UHGV virus genome: UHGV-0326994 | Direction: 5' to 3' (one strand) | Source: a virus | DNA: 64,000 nt | Shown here: positions 5,705-62,201 of the stretch, piece by piece | How positions within the stretch are numbered: position 1 is the stretch's first letter | Layout: each line of letters starts with the position of its first letter | Position numbers and translations under genes: made by a program | Notes under the pieces: generated by a model | What the model saw: only the letters and a program-made list of their open reading frames with translations | Told to the model about the DNA's origin: nothing | Databases searched by the model: none

Positions 5705-13699
<7,995 letters not shown>

Positions 13700-49699: not shown

Positions 49700-50485
49700 T
49701 TAGTTCTTTGCGTCTAAGAAGGTAACTTCCGGTGAAGAGAAAATTTCCTCAACATCCTCATCAGTTCTTGCATAGATATATGTATCTGCATCACTGCCAA
49801 ATGTTACTGCAATCCTGTGATTGTTCTTTGACAGGTGGGTAACTAGAGCGTTACTTAGAGACATCTTTTCAACCGGAGGGTTACTTTGATGTATCTTGCC
49901 TTTTCTTCGTCTGAAGAGGGTAACTGCATCATTAGTGAACACTACTACACCTGCAAAGTATTCTGGTTCACAGTAGTTCTTCCAACCTGAGCGTAACTTG
50001 TGGTACATCTCTCCTTCGTAGACATACAGATACACATCTACACTCTTCATCACCTGATTGATAATAACTGTGACAGCTTGAGGGTCAAGTCCACCGATTC
50101 CTGCGCCAATCATAGGTAAACCAACTTTCTTTAACTGGTTCACTTCACAGTATCTGTTGAGCTGGTTCAAAGATGACTCTAAAGCACTGTATCGGGCATC
50201 TTTACCAGTCTTAAGCTGAGTGTAAAGGTTAGCTATACGACCTTGTTTTAAACGTGCTACAGAGAAATTACCTAGCAAATTTTCACAGGGTTTGTGGCCT
50301 ATACCACCTGCATACAGATAAACTTCTGTATCAGTCTCATATGCTTTTGGGTAAAGTTTAGAAATCTTGTCAGCGATACCTGCACCCATTAAGTTCATAC
50401 AGTTGCAACCGTGACCGATGACGTCAAACTTACCTTTATCAAATGCTGCAAAGATATCACCATTGATGATTTTTACAATACCCAT
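49700..50485 (-). CDS. macro-domain protein (ADP-ribose binding/processing) with C-terminal extension
   Basis: 261 aa; N-terminal IINGDIF...VIGHGCNCMNLMGAGIADKI...GLPMIGAGIGGLDP resembles the macro-domain core; C-terminal ~90 aa of unknown fold. Confidence 0.6.
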   Translation of the reverse strand: MGIVKIINGDIFAAFDKGKFDVIGHGCNCMNLMGAGIADKISKLYPKAYETDTEVYLYAGGIGHKPCENLLGNFSVARLKQGRIANLYTQLKTGKDARYSALESSLNQLNRYCEVNQLKKVGLPMIGAGIGGLDPQAVTVIINQVMKSVDVYLYVYEGEMYHKLRSGWKNYCEPEYFAGVVVFTNDAVTLFRRRKGKIHQSNPPVEKMSLSNALVTHLSKNNHRIAVTFGSDADTYIYARTDEDVEEIFSSPEVTFLDAKN

Positions 50486-57602: not shown

Positions 57603-57931
57603 GACTCACCTCTCATGTTTTTGTAAAGGATAAAGCTTCTGTCATGAACGATACTTGTAGATACTGCAAAGTTACTTTCAAGCATCTGTTTGTTTGGATT
57701 GTAGAAGCTTTCTTTAAACTCGTCAAGTGCAAATTGGTGATGTTGTGGAAGACCTTTTACACAAACCTTTATTGTGATTGCTGCTGCAACCTTTCCAGTC
57801 AGTTCTTCTTTAGCTGCTACTAAAATTTTGTTGAGGAACTTATGACCATCTTCAGGCTTTTTGATGTTCTCCCAACGTTCTTCTAAGACAATGTTGATGT
57901 TCATTTCTTTGATTTTCATATCTTTTACCAA
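57584..57931 (-). CDS. hypothetical protein
   Basis: 115 aa ORF. Confidence 0.35.
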   Translation of the reverse strand: MVKDMKIKEMNINIVLEERWENIKKPEDGHKFLNKILVAAKEELTGKVAAAITIKVCVKGLPQHHQFALDEFKESFYNPNKQMLESNFAVSTSIVHDRSFILYKNMRGESCKHIG

Positions 57932-58269
57932 GTCCAGTTAACAAGTATGCCATCAAAACCTTTTGCTAAAGGTACACCCTCGTGTTCATAAAATTCAGGA
58001 TTAACTTCGAATCCACGATTTTCAATATACTCTATCATGTATTTCATTACAAAGCTAATCTCTTCATAGTCATCTGGGTCTCTGCCAAAGAACTGTTCTA
58101 TGACAAACATACCTTCTTTTGTAGCAAATTGACAGTGGTGATTGTAGATACCTTCACAGAACTTTTCAAACTTTTCTTTACCGAGAACTTCAAGGATGTC
58201 TGTATAGGCAACTTGCAAATACTTAGGTTGTACAGGCTTCTTATTAAACCATATAGAAAGATTATCCAT
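57925..58269 (-). CDS. hypothetical protein
   Basis: 114 aa ORF preceded by a terminator. Confidence 0.35.
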   Translation of the reverse strand: MDNLSIWFNKKPVQPKYLQVAYTDILEVLGKEKFEKFCEGIYNHHCQFATKEGMFVIEQFFGRDPDDYEEISFVMKYMIEYIENRGFEVNPEFYEHEGVPLAKGFDGILVNWTW

Positions 58270-58283
58270 AGCATTCTCCAGAA

Positions 58284-58308
58284 ATTAAAAAGGCTCCCGT
58301 AGGAGCCT
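58284..58308 (-). terminator. rho-independent terminator after nadV
   Basis: ggctcc-cgta-ggagcc with TTTTT on the minus strand. Confidence 0.65.
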
Positions 58309-58322
58309 CTTATCATATACTT

Positions 58323-60104
58323 TTAAAGCTGCTTGTCAATATTATTTCGAATATCACCAAGAGATGTGTAGCCATACTGCTCAGAATCACTAAAGACTAA
58401 GCGTAGAGCACAAGCTGGATGTTCAAGTGCATCTGCAAAGCTCTGGAATCCATAACCATCTACAGCTTTCAGTTTATCACCATCCCACATAGGTGCTACA
58501 CCACCAAAAGCAGACTTCTTAACACCGCTATCTGTTTTAGGGTCTTTTGCAAGCATAATCTCTTTACCACCAATGCTTGCAAGAGTCGCTTTAACAGCAA
58601 ATGCAAAGGTGTCACGAGTCATGTACTGGTAAGTGTAAGAGCCTACGCCAAACACTACGTTAGAGCTTGCAAAACCCATTTCATACAGACGCTTCAGGAT
58701 TTCGTTTGCACGTTCCAGTGTGATAGAGTCACCATAGATAAGGCCAATGTGTTCATCCAGTACCTTAAAACCTTTGGAGTTGATAGTCCCTCCGAAGATG
58801 TTATACAGGGTCTTAATAGCCCCATCAATCTCTGCTACAGGGCGTGTTACAACGTTTGCAGAACCAACCATATAAGCGTTCTTCAACAGCACTGTATCAG
58901 CAACTTCAAAGTCTTCTCTGTCAACAACCATTTCGTAGCCTTCTGACAGTAGCCATCCAGCAATACCATAGCTGATGTTTTCAAGCTTCATATTCAGAAC
59001 AGCATTCAACATTGTGTCGCTGGCTTCCAACTTACTAAGGTGCTCATAATAAGCCTTTTTAGCGCACTCTAAGTGGATTGCTTTATAACCTGTGACAATA
59101 TGTACAGGGTCTCCAGAGTCAGGACGAATTACCAGTTTACCGTCACGTTCCATAATCTCTTTGCGAAGTGCTGGTAAGATTTCTGACACAGTTCTCCAGA
59201 AGTTATAAGTATCTGAAACAACACTTGCAATACCAGTCGGGTAAGTCTTTGTTAAGAAACGACGGAAGGTCTGCAACTCACCTTTAAAGCGTCTTTCCTC
59301 TTCAATCAATTCATTACCACCTTCCCAAGCAATGTTTGCACACATTACAGAGTGTTCAGTGGCTGGTACAGAACCACCAATATCAGAGACTGGGTAAGAC
59401 TGTCCGTAGATGCGTTTAGCTGTATATACAGCAGGGAAGCTATCAGTCCCTTTAAAGCTGGTCAAGTGACCTACAGCATTAAATGCGTCATCAGTAAAGC
59501 CGGACATACCACGCATAGCAAAGTCATGGCACTGATAAGGTAAATGTAAGTCATTGTCACAAGTAAGGTCAGCCCACTTCTTACAGATGCGTTTGTAGTG
59601 CAATGCAATAGTTGCAATGGTACAAGCCTTCCAAATCTCAGCAGAGAAAGCATCTTCCAGATAACCTGCTACCCAATGAAAACCTGAAACAGTGTTCTGG
59701 AAGACAATCATTGGTACACGCATCGGAACAACTGTACCTTCTTCTACAGCGTATACCTCAACTGGCAGATAGCCTAAGTCGTGAAGTGCTTCCCAATGTT
59801 CTCGACCAATAGCATCTTTACCAAGAACACCGTTCATGACTTCTAAGATTTCGTCAATTGCTTCTTTTTTATCACGTTCAAAGAAAGTGGCGTTCCAATG
59901 GTCTATCAAGTAATCTTTAACAAAACGTTGAATACCAAAAGCTACTACACCGTCAATTGCTAAGGGGCTGTTAAACCATTTGTCGCTACGTGGTGTCAGG
60001 TTGAACATCAAGTACTCTGTTGCGCTAGGATACTGGTAAACATGACCAGATTTGTAAGCATCTGCATTTAAACCTGCTGGTACTGCGTAAAGTGATTTAG
60101 TCAT
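58323..60104 (-). CDS. nadV: nicotinamide phosphoribosyltransferase (Nampt/NadV)
   Basis: 593 aa; size and N-terminal AYKSGH motif typical of Nampt; adjacent to PRPP synthetase. Confidence 0.8.
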   Translation of the reverse strand: MTKSLYAVPAGLNADAYKSGHVYQYPSATEYLMFNLTPRSDKWFNSPLAIDGVVAFGIQRFVKDYLIDHWNATFFERDKKEAIDEILEVMNGVLGKDAIGREHWEALHDLGYLPVEVYAVEEGTVVPMRVPMIVFQNTVSGFHWVAGYLEDAFSAEIWKACTIATIALHYKRICKKWADLTCDNDLHLPYQCHDFAMRGMSGFTDDAFNAVGHLTSFKGTDSFPAVYTAKRIYGQSYPVSDIGGSVPATEHSVMCANIAWEGGNELIEEERRFKGELQTFRRFLTKTYPTGIASVVSDTYNFWRTVSEILPALRKEIMERDGKLVIRPDSGDPVHIVTGYKAIHLECAKKAYYEHLSKLEASDTMLNAVLNMKLENISYGIAGWLLSEGYEMVVDREDFEVADTVLLKNAYMVGSANVVTRPVAEIDGAIKTLYNIFGGTINSKGFKVLDEHIGLIYGDSITLERANEILKRLYEMGFASSNVVFGVGSYTYQYMTRDTFAFAVKATLASIGGKEIMLAKDPKTDSGVKKSAFGGVAPMWDGDKLKAVDGYGFQSFADALEHPACALRLVFSDSEQYGYTSLGDIRNNIDKQL

Positions 60105-60116
60105 CTTTTAGTCTCT

Positions 60117-60141
60117 CTCAAAATGGGGCTATGAAGCCCCT
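60117..60141 (-). terminator. hairpin between prs and nadV
   Basis: ggggct-atga-agcccc followed on the minus strand by ATTTTGAGAG. Confidence 0.5.
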
Positions 60142-60149
60142 ATAAAGTT

Positions 60150-61046
60150 TTAATCAAGGTTTGCTACAGTAACTTGACCATAATGTGTTAACCCACGGTC
60201 TTTAGCTTCCCCTAAAGAGTTTGTAGTGTAGATATGGTCAATACCATTGTCAAGTAAGTTTTCAACACCTTTAGAGAAGATACCATGTGTTACATAGAGT
60301 TCCACACGTTTTGCACCTGCTTCACGTAGGTGTTTCGCTGCCTCTATGAAGGTTCGTCCTCCATCACAAATATCATCCAGAATCATGACTGTTTTATCTG
60401 TCAAATCAACATCATCAAGGATTCGCATACCAGTGATTTCACCAGTCTTGAGGTTACGTACTTTAGACATTGTGATGTATGGCTTATCCACTTCTTTAGC
60501 AGTCTCTGCAATCTTCTTAGCAGCACCTGCATCTGGGGCTACTAAGTAATCAACCAGTGGGTCATTTGCATAGTGGACTGCAATTTCCTTTTGAGGAATA
60601 CTCTGGAAGCAGTTAAACAGGTTATCTGGTACATAGCTGTGAGGGTCAACTGCACAGACTGCATCAAAACCCATTGCATTAACCTGTTGTGCAAACACTT
60701 TCAAAGCTGCTGCATCGCCTTTAAACATGTGACGGTCATAACGTGCATTTGGCAAATAGTAAAAGATAATGGTCTTCATAGCAAACTTATGGGGTACTAA
60801 ATCATCAATTGCTTCTTTAGCAAGTGCCACAGCAAACAATGTGTCTTTATCATAACCTTTTACAATCATAATCACATTGTTGATGGATGATGCTGCATAA
60901 GCAGTGAAATCAACAAACTCTGGTGAAAAGTGTCCACCAATCTCACCAGAAGGGAATTGGATGATGTTAAACTCTTCTTCGTGAGTCCCTTTAGTGGGTG
61001 AATGGACTGTAACACGGATAGATGTTTTCATAGTTTTCTCTCTCAA
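60150..61046 (-). CDS. prs: ribose-phosphate pyrophosphokinase (PRPP synthetase)
   Basis: 298 aa; PRPP-binding motif VMILDDICDGGRTF and flexible-loop region. Confidence 0.8.
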   Translation of the reverse strand: MREKTMKTSIRVTVHSPTKGTHEEEFNIIQFPSGEIGGHFSPEFVDFTAYAASSINNVIMIVKGYDKDTLFAVALAKEAIDDLVPHKFAMKTIIFYYLPNARYDRHMFKGDAAALKVFAQQVNAMGFDAVCAVDPHSYVPDNLFNCFQSIPQKEIAVHYANDPLVDYLVAPDAGAAKKIAETAKEVDKPYITMSKVRNLKTGEITGMRILDDVDLTDKTVMILDDICDGGRTFIEAAKHLREAGAKRVELYVTHGIFSKGVENLLDNGIDHIYTTNSLGEAKDRGLTHYGQVTVANLD

Positions 61047-61321
61047 TCAAAAGTTACGTTTGTTACTGCCATTGCAGATTTGCATTTTGCAGGGTCTACA
61101 ATGTGATAAAGTACACTACAGTTGCCTGTGCTGTCTGGTACAGGCTTTACCCATTGTTGCTTGACAGTTGGTTCTCCTAAATCTTTGTATGAACCATCTG
61201 TAAAATTGTTTAACATCTCAAGTGCAATTGGTTCTGGAACATGACCTCGTATCATGTACATCTCACAACCATTACCACCTTCGCTAACTAATGGTAAAAT
61301 CTCCCACTTTTCTTTAGCCAT
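61043..61321 (-). CDS. hypothetical protein
   Basis: 92 aa ORF overlapping the prs start. Confidence 0.35.
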   Translation of the reverse strand: MAKEKWEILPLVSEGGNGCEMYMIRGHVPEPIALEMLNNFTDGSYKDLGEPTVKQQWVKPVPDSTGNCSVLYHIVDPAKCKSAMAVTNVTFD

Positions 61322-61829
61322 TGTAAGTTGCCCTATAAACTGTCTCGAACTTCAACAGGAGAGATATTGCCAAATCTGTATAGTTGTTGTCAAGAACATC
61401 TGGCATATTATTTTTGATATATTTCTCTTGTTCTTCATAGGTCATCTTAGGGGTGCTTAGAAGGTTATTTCCTTGCTTCTGGTTGTCAAGTTTAGTCTGG
61501 ATAAACCAGTTTGCACAGTGATGCTCACCACCCTTTGTAACAGGTTTGTGGTGGCCTAATGTGAAGGATTGACTACCTGTGTATCTGCAAAGTTTATTGA
61601 GCACTGTAATGGTGTTCTTCACAACAAACAATTCATACAGATTATCTATAGTGTAGTGTGGGTAATAACGGAATAGTGCTCTTTCACGAGTACTTTCACG
61701 ATTCCAGAGAATCATGTGATTGGAGTTTGAGGGGTCGTATTGATGGGAGTCAATGAACTCTTGACGTTCCTCAAAGCTGAGTCTTAACACTGACATTGCA
61801 GCAGAACGTTTCAGGTTTGACAGATACAT
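61314..61829 (-). CDS. hypothetical protein (possible His-Me nuclease-like; weak)
   Basis: 171 aa; GHHKPVTKGGEHHCANW segment. Confidence 0.3.
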   Translation of the reverse strand: MYLSNLKRSAAMSVLRLSFEERQEFIDSHQYDPSNSNHMILWNRESTRERALFRYYPHYTIDNLYELFVVKNTITVLNKLCRYTGSQSFTLGHHKPVTKGGEHHCANWFIQTKLDNQKQGNNLLSTPKMTYEEQEKYIKNNMPDVLDNNYTDLAISLLLKFETVYRATYNG

Positions 61830-61880
61830 TTTATCTCCAAAATAAAAAGGGAACCTTTACAGTCCCCTTATAGTATCTGT

Positions 61881-62201
61881 TTACTGAGCTACTTTCAAGA
61901 TGCTTGTGAATGAGATTTCACTCTCATCCATAAACTCTTTTGCTTCTCCAGTAACTTTTACAAAGTTATCTAGGCAGATAATCTTCTTATCTTTCTTGCT
62001 GTAGGTTAGCTTAACCTTTTCAATATCTTTCTTAGAGCTTTTCTCTTCATTGAAGAGTTTTACAGCTTCTTTGAATGGTAGATATGAACCATCATTGTCA
62101 CTAATGAACCCTGTACCACAATAGTAGTAGTTATACTCTTTAGCCATAAATTGGCACAGTACGAAAATCTGTAATTTACGAGTGTTATAAACTTTGCTCA
62201 T
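61881..62201 (-). CDS. hypothetical protein
   Basis: 106 aa ORF. Confidence 0.35.
   Translation of the reverse strand: MSKVYNTRKLQIFVLCQFMAKEYNYYYCGTGFISDNDGSYLPFKEAVKLFNEEKSSKKDIEKVKLTYSKKDKKIICLDNFVKVTGEAKEFMDESEISFTSILKVAQ

Follow-up and report, generated by a model that had tools for sequence, protein, structure and literature searches.

A Prs- and Nampt-like gene pair in a Felixounavirus genome, probably encoding the NAD+ reconstitution pathway NARP1

The gene pair and its orthologues

I analysed a 64,000-nucleotide stretch of the virus genome UHGV-0326994 (hereafter referred to as the window), in which two neighbouring genes encode proteins resembling ribose-phosphate pyrophosphokinase (Prs) and nicotinamide phosphoribosyltransferase (Nampt). 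With a probability of roughly 0.9, this pair is NAD+ reconstitution pathway 1 (NARP1), a route that rebuilds nicotinamide adenine dinucleotide (NAD+) from ADP-ribose and nicotinamide, and that was discovered in the phage Bas63 (Osterman et al., bioRxiv 10.1101/2024.02.11.579819). The two genes, adps and namat, are neighbours on the minus strand, with adps upstream and a spacer of 45 nt:

60150-61031, minus strand: adps, predicted ADP-ribose diphosphokinase (Prs-like), 293 amino acids, gene 1 of NARP1
58323-60104, minus strand: namat, predicted nicotinamide ADP-ribose transferase (Nampt-like), 593 amino acids, gene 2 of NARP1

The initial annotation had placed adjacent genes at 58323-60104 and 60150-61046, with a GC hairpin between them and a macro-domain protein about 8 kb away on the same strand. 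All of these were recovered here, with one correction to the open reading frames (ORFs). The start listed for the upstream gene, a mechanically assigned TTG at 61046, overlaps with the stop codon that ends the ORF before it. Translation almost certainly begins at the ATG at 61031, since a GAGAGAG motif precedes this ATG, as is the case for namat, and since the resulting protein of 293 amino acids matches the Bas63 annotation.

Family models name both products after cellular enzymes. The 58323-60104 product matches the Pfam families NAPRTase and NAMPT_N, the NCBIfam model PRK09198 (469 bits) and PHROG 448 ('nicotinamide phosphoribosyl transferase'); that of the gene at 60150 matches the Pfam families Pribosyltran and Pribosyl_synth, the model TIGR01251 (123 bits) and PHROG 619 ('ribose-phosphate pyrophosphokinase'). 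With a 3.4-kb query around the pair (58000-61400), matches were obtained in 260 phage records; in 215 of these the match extends over 80% or more of the query, mostly at an identity of 90-95%. Felix O1-type phages of Escherichia, Salmonella, Shigella and Citrobacter make up almost the whole set, and nearly all records carry the names 'nicotinamide phosphoribosyltransferase' and 'ribose-phosphate pyrophosphokinase', in agreement with the earlier statement that both genes are long annotated in such phages. The closest record is 95% identical to the query and none in the collection is identical; judging by these matches, the window is a Felixounavirus distinct from every record in the collection. 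A further profile, PHROG 12872 (547 positions), is matched by Adps in its N-terminal part (74-224) and by Namat in its C-terminal part (235-534), a pattern suggesting that natural Adps-Namat fusion proteins exist.

Bas63 (Escherichia phage JohannRWettstein, MZ501086.1) is a Felixounavirus, and its NARP1 is encoded by genes 79 and 80. Comparison of both window proteins with these, in line with the homology search proposed in the initial annotation, shows them to be orthologues, which speaks for the proposed role in NAD+ reconstitution and against the identity as Prs and Nampt. Window Namat and Bas63_0080 are 98% identical (581/593), and window Adps is 81% identical to Bas63_0079 (236/293) and 83% identical to the Felix O1 Adps. 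The gene order, the protein lengths (293 and 593 amino acids), the 45-nt spacer, the stem of its hairpin and the locus are all common to Bas63 and the window, with NrdG and five small ORFs upstream of the pair, and small ORFs followed by rIIA/rIIB downstream. In contrast, Bas63 carries another allele of the N-terminal half of Adps, the identity being 62% over residues 1-65, 68% over residues 131-180 and 96% over residues 181-293. In the published survey, Felix O1 is listed (Tables S1 and S2) with a 'Namat-associated' Adps and an 'Adps-associated' Namat, as is Bas63 (bioRxiv 10.1101/2024.02.11.579819). The system itself was thus known before, and the window pair is an unremarkable representative of it, in the genus where it was discovered.

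Enzymology of the pair

In the pathway named NARP1, Adps turns ADP-ribose (ADPR) plus ATP into ADPR-pyrophosphate (ADPR-PP), and Namat turns ADPR-PP plus nicotinamide into NAD+; it is found in 4.3% of phage genomes (bioRxiv 10.1101/2024.02.11.579819). It has been shown that Bas63 without genes 79-80 forms about 20-fold fewer plaques on SIR2-HerA cells, with a deeper loss of NAD+, and that it plates normally on hosts lacking this system. The Bas63 operon is functional in the absence of host pncC and nadR, and untargeted mass spectrometry detected ADPR-PP in vivo only in the combined presence of operon and defence system. In vitro, the Adps of Bacillus phage SPbetaL1 pyrophosphorylates ADP-ribose and gives no product from ribose-5-phosphate, while the SPbetaL1 Namat, when given phosphoribosyl pyrophosphate (PRPP) and ADPR-PP together, forms NAD+ as the sole product (bioRxiv 10.1101/2024.02.11.579819).

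For Adps, a structure has been reported (UniProt F1D1Q1), the numbering of which fits the sequence of Vibrio phage ICP1 in the table of Osterman et al. In this protein K185 is essential, residues R87, H121, D161, D212, D213 and D216 form part of the acceptor site, and the Adps family has as its signature, relative to PRPS, that the C-terminal alpha11-alpha12 module is lost (Liu et al., PMC13586617). In my alignment, K190 of the window Adps aligns with ICP1 K185 and with K162 of SPbetaL1, which Osterman et al. had mutated (bioRxiv 10.1101/2024.02.11.579819), and the acceptor-groove residues R97, H131, D167, D219, D220 and D223 are kept. ICP1 F18 (in 'TFSD') corresponds to window F26 (in 'QFPSGE') by motif only, this placement being used because MAFFT mis-registers the N-terminus of the ICP1 Adps; the counterpart of ICP1 F92 is ambiguous (M102 or F103). 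The window protein thus resembles the SPbetaL1 and ICP1 Adps in its catalytic Lys, in the Arg, His and Asp residues of the acceptor site and in having no PRPS C-terminal module, but is just 31% identical to them.

The resemblance to cellular Prs is more distant. Aligned with E. coli Prs, to which its identity is 23%, the window Adps lacks the C-terminal alpha11-alpha12 segment; the regulatory/filament module of the cellular enzyme is lost. It also fails the Prs equivalog models of NCBIfam (106 bits for the best against a cut-off of 296, and 93 against 297 for PRK01259), passing only the cut-off of the broad TIGR01251 subfamily (123 against 113 bits). Its best PDB match is an archaeal (Sulfolobus) Prs at 74 bits, in a searched set that contained no Adps structures.

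For Namat, the top PDB matches are 9W5W and 9W5X (427 bits), the crystal structures of the SPbetaL1 Namat (Lan et al., PMC12774641), while the Xanthomonas (Xcc) Nampt reaches 180 bits and human NAMPT no more than 144 bits. Every catalytic-core residue named in that paper is conserved in the aligned window protein, namely D15, Y17, F195, R198, D221, A248, H251, R327 (the equivalent of SPbetaL1 R306), D329, G458, D459, R497 and D498. The initial annotation had pointed out that a Nampt-like enzyme without its catalytic residues would speak against a role in NAD+ synthesis; this is not what is found.

Selectivity for adenine has been attributed to a clamp, made up of a helix with two aromatic residues (SPbetaL1 F392 and Y396) and a loop with a stacking residue (PMC12774641). 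The corresponding helix in the window Namat reads G488-S-Y-T-Y-Q-Y494, with Y490 and Y494 as aromatics, while the Nampt of Vibrio phage KVP40 has GGGLLQQ; the aligned regions are GVGSYTYQYMTRD for the window, GIGSFTYQYNTRD for SPbetaL1 and GMGGGLLQQLDRD for the bona fide Nampt of KVP40. The clamp loop of the window Namat is K42-W43. It has been described that where a Lys occupies position three of this loop, the next residue stacks on the adenine, 'e.g. Bas63 Namat' (PMC12774641). The SPbetaL1 enzyme shares the catalytic core and the aromatic clamp helix with the window protein, but is only 49% identical to it and has an Arg in the loop where the window has Lys-Trp. The helix motif also sorts 11 further homologues from viral contigs into Namat-type and Nampt-type proteins, without exception. 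This clamp for ADPR-PP sets the window enzyme apart from cellular Nampt (human, Xanthomonas). Because the folds and the core phosphoribosyl-transfer chemistry are common to the phage proteins and to cellular Prs and Nampt, annotation pipelines assign the cellular names.

A side result of the PDB search concerns chains 9KE8 and 9KEO, which bear the name 'nicotinamide phosphoribosyltransferase' but reach 352 bits against the window Namat, far over the true Nampts. They are probably another Namat, to judge from this score; a literature search found no paper citing them.

Given the orthology, the synteny and the conservation of all named essential residues, the window's own proteins may be expected to act as their characterised relatives do. 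A host defence NADase of the SIR2, TIR or SEFIR type would cleave NAD+ to ADP-ribose and nicotinamide. Adps would then move the beta-gamma pyrophosphate of ATP to the 1'' position of the terminal ribose of ADP-ribose, giving ADPR-PP, and Namat would join ADPR-PP and nicotinamide to NAD+, with release of pyrophosphate, in one step. Since NAD+ would be made in a single step, there would be no intermediate nicotinamide mononucleotide (NMN), and no host or phage Nmnat would be required. NARP1 should also be nearly cost-free in undefended cells, because its substrate arises only upon immune cleavage.

The initial annotation had described the pair as Prs plus Nampt, reconstituting NAD+ against NAD+-depleting immunity. 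The role is upheld by the sensitisation of the Bas63 deletion to SIR2-HerA and its lower NAD+, but the names and the enzymology are not, as the orthologues are Adps and Namat, which lead through ADPR-PP straight to NAD+, with no PRPP or NMN. Taken literally, a Prs and a Nampt would convert ribose-5-phosphate, ATP and nicotinamide to NMN, leaving host NadR, or PncC followed by NadD/NadE, to finish the synthesis of NAD+. Such a route agrees with the Pfam, NCBIfam and PHROG names, with the cut-offs of PRK09198 and TIGR01251, both of which are passed, and with the GenBank annotation of more than 200 records; in addition, the SPbetaL1 Namat can form NMN from PRPP if ADPR-PP is absent. It is nonetheless very improbable, since the Bas63 operon works without pncC and nadR, ADPR-PP is seen in vivo and an Adps homologue is inactive on ribose-5-phosphate. 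The window proteins themselves also argue against it, as Adps lies 200-480 bits under every Prs equivalog cut-off and has no Prs C-terminal module, and Namat possesses the clamp residues.

The gene content of the phage bears on the same question. The true Nampt of KVP40 is partnered by an Nmnat, not by a Prs, in the pathway named NARP2; 94% of phages with a true Nampt encode an Nmnat, and no phage with both pathways was found (bioRxiv 10.1101/2024.02.11.579819). No such partner was identified here. The Pfam inventory covered 99 candidate genes of the window: the 50 non-structural ORFs gave nine families in all, with no Nmnat, NadR, PnuC or Nudix family, and the structural half gave 41 families, 25 of the 41 being listed. 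The complete Bas63 record has no annotated Nmnat, NadR, PnuC or Nudix gene either.

These data also dispose of two other known pathways. NARP2 (Nampt plus Nmnat) does not fit, given the Namat-type clamp helix and the absence of a CTP_transf_like/Nmnat family from the non-structural window ORFs and from the Bas63 annotation. The KVP40 pathway, consisting of the Nampt NadV and the Nmnat/Nudix protein NatV, does resemble the window pair in using a Nampt-fold enzyme (30% identity) and in restoring NAD+ under immune depletion. It differs in its route from PRPP to NMN, which needs an Nmnat, in a GGGLLQQ helix without aromatics, in having no Adps and in constitutive overproduction of NAD+; in KVP40 the Nmnat gene does not adjoin nadV. 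NARP3 (PnuC plus a NadR-like protein; PMC13464706) was likewise rejected, as neither family is present in the window inventory.

A different interpretation, which prevailed before 2024, is that the pair is a housekeeping auxiliary-metabolism module, supplying NAD+ or nucleotide precursors for replication regardless of immunity. The pair does have genes of nucleotide metabolism nearby (NrdG, NrdD, NrdAB and thymidylate synthase), and NARP2-type pathways raise NAD+ even without a defence system (bioRxiv 10.1101/2024.02.11.579819). However, NARP1 phages produce no excess NAD+ in defence-free cells, where ADPR is scarce (bioRxiv 10.1101/2024.02.11.579819). The normal plating of the Bas63 deletion in such cells, and the natural loss of the cassette from a related contig (L007, see below), also make a housekeeping function hardly credible.

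Some observations weigh against the assignment to NARP1 preferred here. The window leaves out roughly a quarter of the phage genome, for which the check for an Nmnat consists of the Bas63 annotation only. The Bas63 gene 79 protein purified poorly, and the published enzymology is that of homologues 31-49% identical to the window proteins; one of these, the SPbetaL1 Namat, has the side activity mentioned above, forming NMN from PRPP in vitro when ADPR-PP is absent (bioRxiv 10.1101/2024.02.11.579819). Given this activity, some formation of NMN might occur alongside the main reaction. Finally, the N-terminal allele of the window Adps is not that of Bas63 and Felix O1, the identity dropping from 96% over residues 181-293 to 62% over residues 1-65.

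Transcription unit, insertions and natural variation

The pair is flanked, and its two genes are separated, by the following elements:

60125-60140, minus strand: GC hairpin GGGGCU-UCAU-AGCCCC in the adps-namat spacer, followed by AUUUU and then by the GAGAGAG ribosome-binding motif of namat
58288-58339, minus strand: promoter-like TTGACA-16-TATGAT at the end of namat, directly followed by a 10-bp stem-loop and a T-run
61847-61898, minus strand: upstream cassette of TTGAAA-17-TACTAT, stem-loop, T-run, GGAG and ATG, ahead of an ORF of 171 amino acids
61043-61829, minus strand: two small ORFs (171 and 92 amino acids) extending from the upstream cassette to adps, orthologues of Bas63_0077 and Bas63_0078

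The spacer hairpin has a folding energy of -14.4 kcal/mol (z = -2.7 relative to shuffled sequences). Its stem is invariant in about ten Felix-like variants except for one altered stem (L005/L006), while the loop varies freely. I considered that it might be the terminator of the operon, but only four U follow it, and a strong terminator-like hairpin is located just past namat (58311-58288). The spacer hairpin may instead act as a weak internal attenuator or as an RNA stabiliser.

Both outer cassettes share the same design, with sigma-70-like -35 and -10 elements, a GC-rich stem-loop, a T-run, a GGAG and the next ATG. Similar promoter/stem-loop cassettes occur in T4-type phages. The one at 58288-58339 is probably the terminator of the NARP1 unit combined with the promoter of the next unit, and the one at 61847-61898 is probably the start of the transcription unit holding adps and namat. 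The two small ORFs are probably co-transcribed with these genes. This arrangement suggests a unit of four genes (ORF171, ORF92, adps and namat), flanked by combined terminator/promoter cassettes. ORF171 (61314-61829, minus strand) weakly resembles a PHROG of HNH endonucleases (E = 1e-4) as well as DUF7167, and in some relatives an annotated HNH endonuclease lies inside the region matched by the 3.4-kb query.

The window Namat also possesses two insertions, identified in the alignment:

58824-59075, minus strand: 83-residue insertion (residues 344-427), between two active-site loops, RPDSGDP (the ribose loop) and YGDS
about 59280-59330, minus strand: 15-residue insertion near residue 260 (approximately residues 259-275)

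Both are missing from the SPbetaL1 Namat and from the KVP40 Nampt, and the Namat structure paper is silent on such insertions (PMC12774641). Long, divergent inserts are found at both sites in three Namat-type proteins from unrelated contigs (L053, L078 and L081), and in none of the Nampt-type proteins. A Pfam scan of Namat gave no domain match to the 83-residue insert. A remnant of an intein or homing endonuclease was considered and set aside, as no such Pfam domain is present and as variable inserts are found at the same site in other Namat-type proteins; because of the latter, the insert points to an accessory subdomain.

Relatives differ in the 5' half of adps. In the region encoding the Adps N-terminus (60780-61050), 154 records share 90% identity or more with the window, 74 share 60-80%, and almost none fall in between. 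The window-type allele is the commoner among Felix-like records, Bas63 and Felix O1 carrying the other. The named functional residues of Adps are identical in both alleles. The presence of two alleles of the adps 5' half beside a 98%-identical Namat looks like a recombination mosaic.

Two further differences concern the presence of genes. The 114-amino-acid ORF that follows namat (57925-58269, minus strand) is an indel, present in the window and in Bas63 and missing from several contigs that are 94-95% identical (L009 and others). A larger deletion was identified in the Felix-like contig L007 (IMGVR_UViG_3300045988_004931), where 3.1 kb corresponding to window 57921-61024 are cleanly removed, with an 8-bp overlap at the junction. 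This takes out adps from codon 3, namat and the 114-amino-acid ORF, and keeps the orthologues of ORF171 and ORF92. Since precisely these genes are gone from a Felix-like contig found in nature, NARP1 is a dispensable accessory cassette, as expected of a counter-defence module.

The distal macro-domain protein and the meaning of the pair

The macro-domain protein noted in the initial annotation is encoded as follows:

49700-50485, minus strand: two-domain macro protein of 261 amino acids (30.9 bits for Pfam Macro, the cut-off being 22)

The ORF lies 7,838 nt downstream of the pair, on the same strand and about 14 genes away, in a terminator-bounded unit of its own, three such units past NARP1. 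Its interest comes from aRES, a RES-domain defence that cleaves NAD+ to nicotinamide and ADPR-1''-phosphate, a product unusable by NARP1; 15% of NARP1 operons carry a macro-domain phosphatase, Adpp, that restores ADPR, an arrangement named NARP1-AP (10.64898/2026.01.28.702374). The survey behind this figure counted just genes at most two positions from the operon, and its Adpp table lists no Escherichia or Salmonella phage and no Felix-type phage, while aRES homologues are known from both genera (10.64898/2026.01.28.702374). A literature search found no paper connecting Felixounavirus with NARP1 or NARP1-AP.

Sequence comparison assigns the N-terminal domain, residues 1-156, to the Adpp/Poa1p-like family. 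This domain aligns with the entire characterised Adpp from Vibrio phage Gary (27% identical; E = 2e-13, pairwise), and the protein scores 109.6 bits, end to end, against a profile that I built from 13 Adpp proteins encoded in NARP1 operons. All ten invariant columns of the Adpp family are kept, and H25 corresponds to H24 of the Gary Adpp, the site of the inactivating mutation H24A. The near-invariant Trp of the GGDW motif is replaced in the window protein (GLDP).

A structure model (predicted local distance difference test score, pLDDT, 90.8; predicted template modelling score, pTM, 0.88) consists of a macro domain and a beta-rich C-terminal domain. Foldseek places the macro domain in the TARG1/Poa1p/DarG fold class. 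The catalytic residues of TARG1 are Lys84 and Asp125. In the profile alignment these positions are occupied by Gln90 and Gly131, both invariant in the family, so that the TARG1 dyad is absent. This makes a TARG1-type de-ADP-ribosylase less likely, though the fold is still compatible with one; DarG was not part of this alignment. The C-terminal domain (residues ~158-261, 49703-50014) gave no Pfam or PDB sequence match. It is common to relatives down to 33% identity and is lacking in the operon-encoded Adpp (about 155 amino acids).

It is therefore conceivable that NARP1 is extended in this phage, with the macro protein removing the 1''-phosphate from the ADPR-1''-phosphate made by aRES-type RES phosphorylases and so feeding Adps. 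I regard this as a tentative possibility, at somewhat worse than even odds; it would add to NARP1 and not compete with it. It is favoured by the family membership, the retained invariant columns and H25, the missing TARG1 dyad and the occurrence of aRES in the bacteria that these phages infect, E. coli and Salmonella. The order Namat ... rIIA-rIIB ... PNK ... macro is also kept in two-domain relatives in which the macro protein is 33-41% identical, but this order reflects conserved backbone synteny, and hence is no independent evidence. A further indication comes from L076, L078 and L084, where Adpp-like macro genes and NARP1-type genes are linked over 6-9 kb on backbones without rIIA, rIIB or PNK homologues; because these backbones are unrelated, loose linkage of macro gene and NARP1 is not peculiar to Felix-type phages. 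One relative, L086 (Logan SRR18206799 contig, macro gene at 10001-10780), is Felix-like with the same Adps, Namat, rIIA and rIIB gene lengths. Its macro protein is only 41% identical to that of the window, so that this gene has diverged much further than those around it.

Against such an extension stands the position of the gene, 7.8 kb off and three terminator-bounded units downstream. In the NARP1-AP of Vibrio phage Gary, the three genes form one Adps-Adpp-Namat operon. The window encodes all three families, with the conserved His in the macro protein, but its macro gene is in another unit, is not within two genes of the operon, and carries a fused domain of about 100 amino acids. The fold class includes de-ADP-ribosylases, and the replaced GGDW Trp and the extra C-terminal domain likewise tell against a phosphatase. 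The genomic context of the family is also mixed. Of 68 Adpp-like macro loci in viral contigs outside the Felix group, nine have NARP1-type genes within 10 kb, six have Nampt-type genes and two a partial or Prs-like hit, and about 75% have no NAD+ salvage gene within that distance. In the six (L035, L038, L082, L043, L051 and L067) the macro gene adjoins a Nampt-type gene (GGxLLQ clamp helix), with a longer Prs-like gene in three of them. On account of these six loci, the macro family associates with NAD+ salvage genes beyond NARP1.

Nothing in the window alters the current understanding of NARP1, and the main addition made here is the corrected enzymology; the macro/Adpp lead and the Namat insertion are modest points beyond what is known. 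The pair is a case of annotation transfer yielding the wrong chemistry, as the names Prs and Nampt still stand in over 200 phage records of GenBank and in the current models of Pfam, NCBIfam and PHROG. Should the macro protein indeed serve NARP1 from a distance, the published figure of 15% for operons with a phosphatase, which considers genes within two positions, would be a substantial underestimate. With NARP1, the phage should escape SIR2-, TIR- and SEFIR-type defences (SIR2-HerA, DSR1/2 and type I Thoeris), independently of host salvage genes, which bears on the choice of Felix-type phages for therapy and biocontrol. It should stay vulnerable to other kinds of NAD+ cleavage (aRES, Metis), unless the phosphatase step is provided by the distal macro protein.

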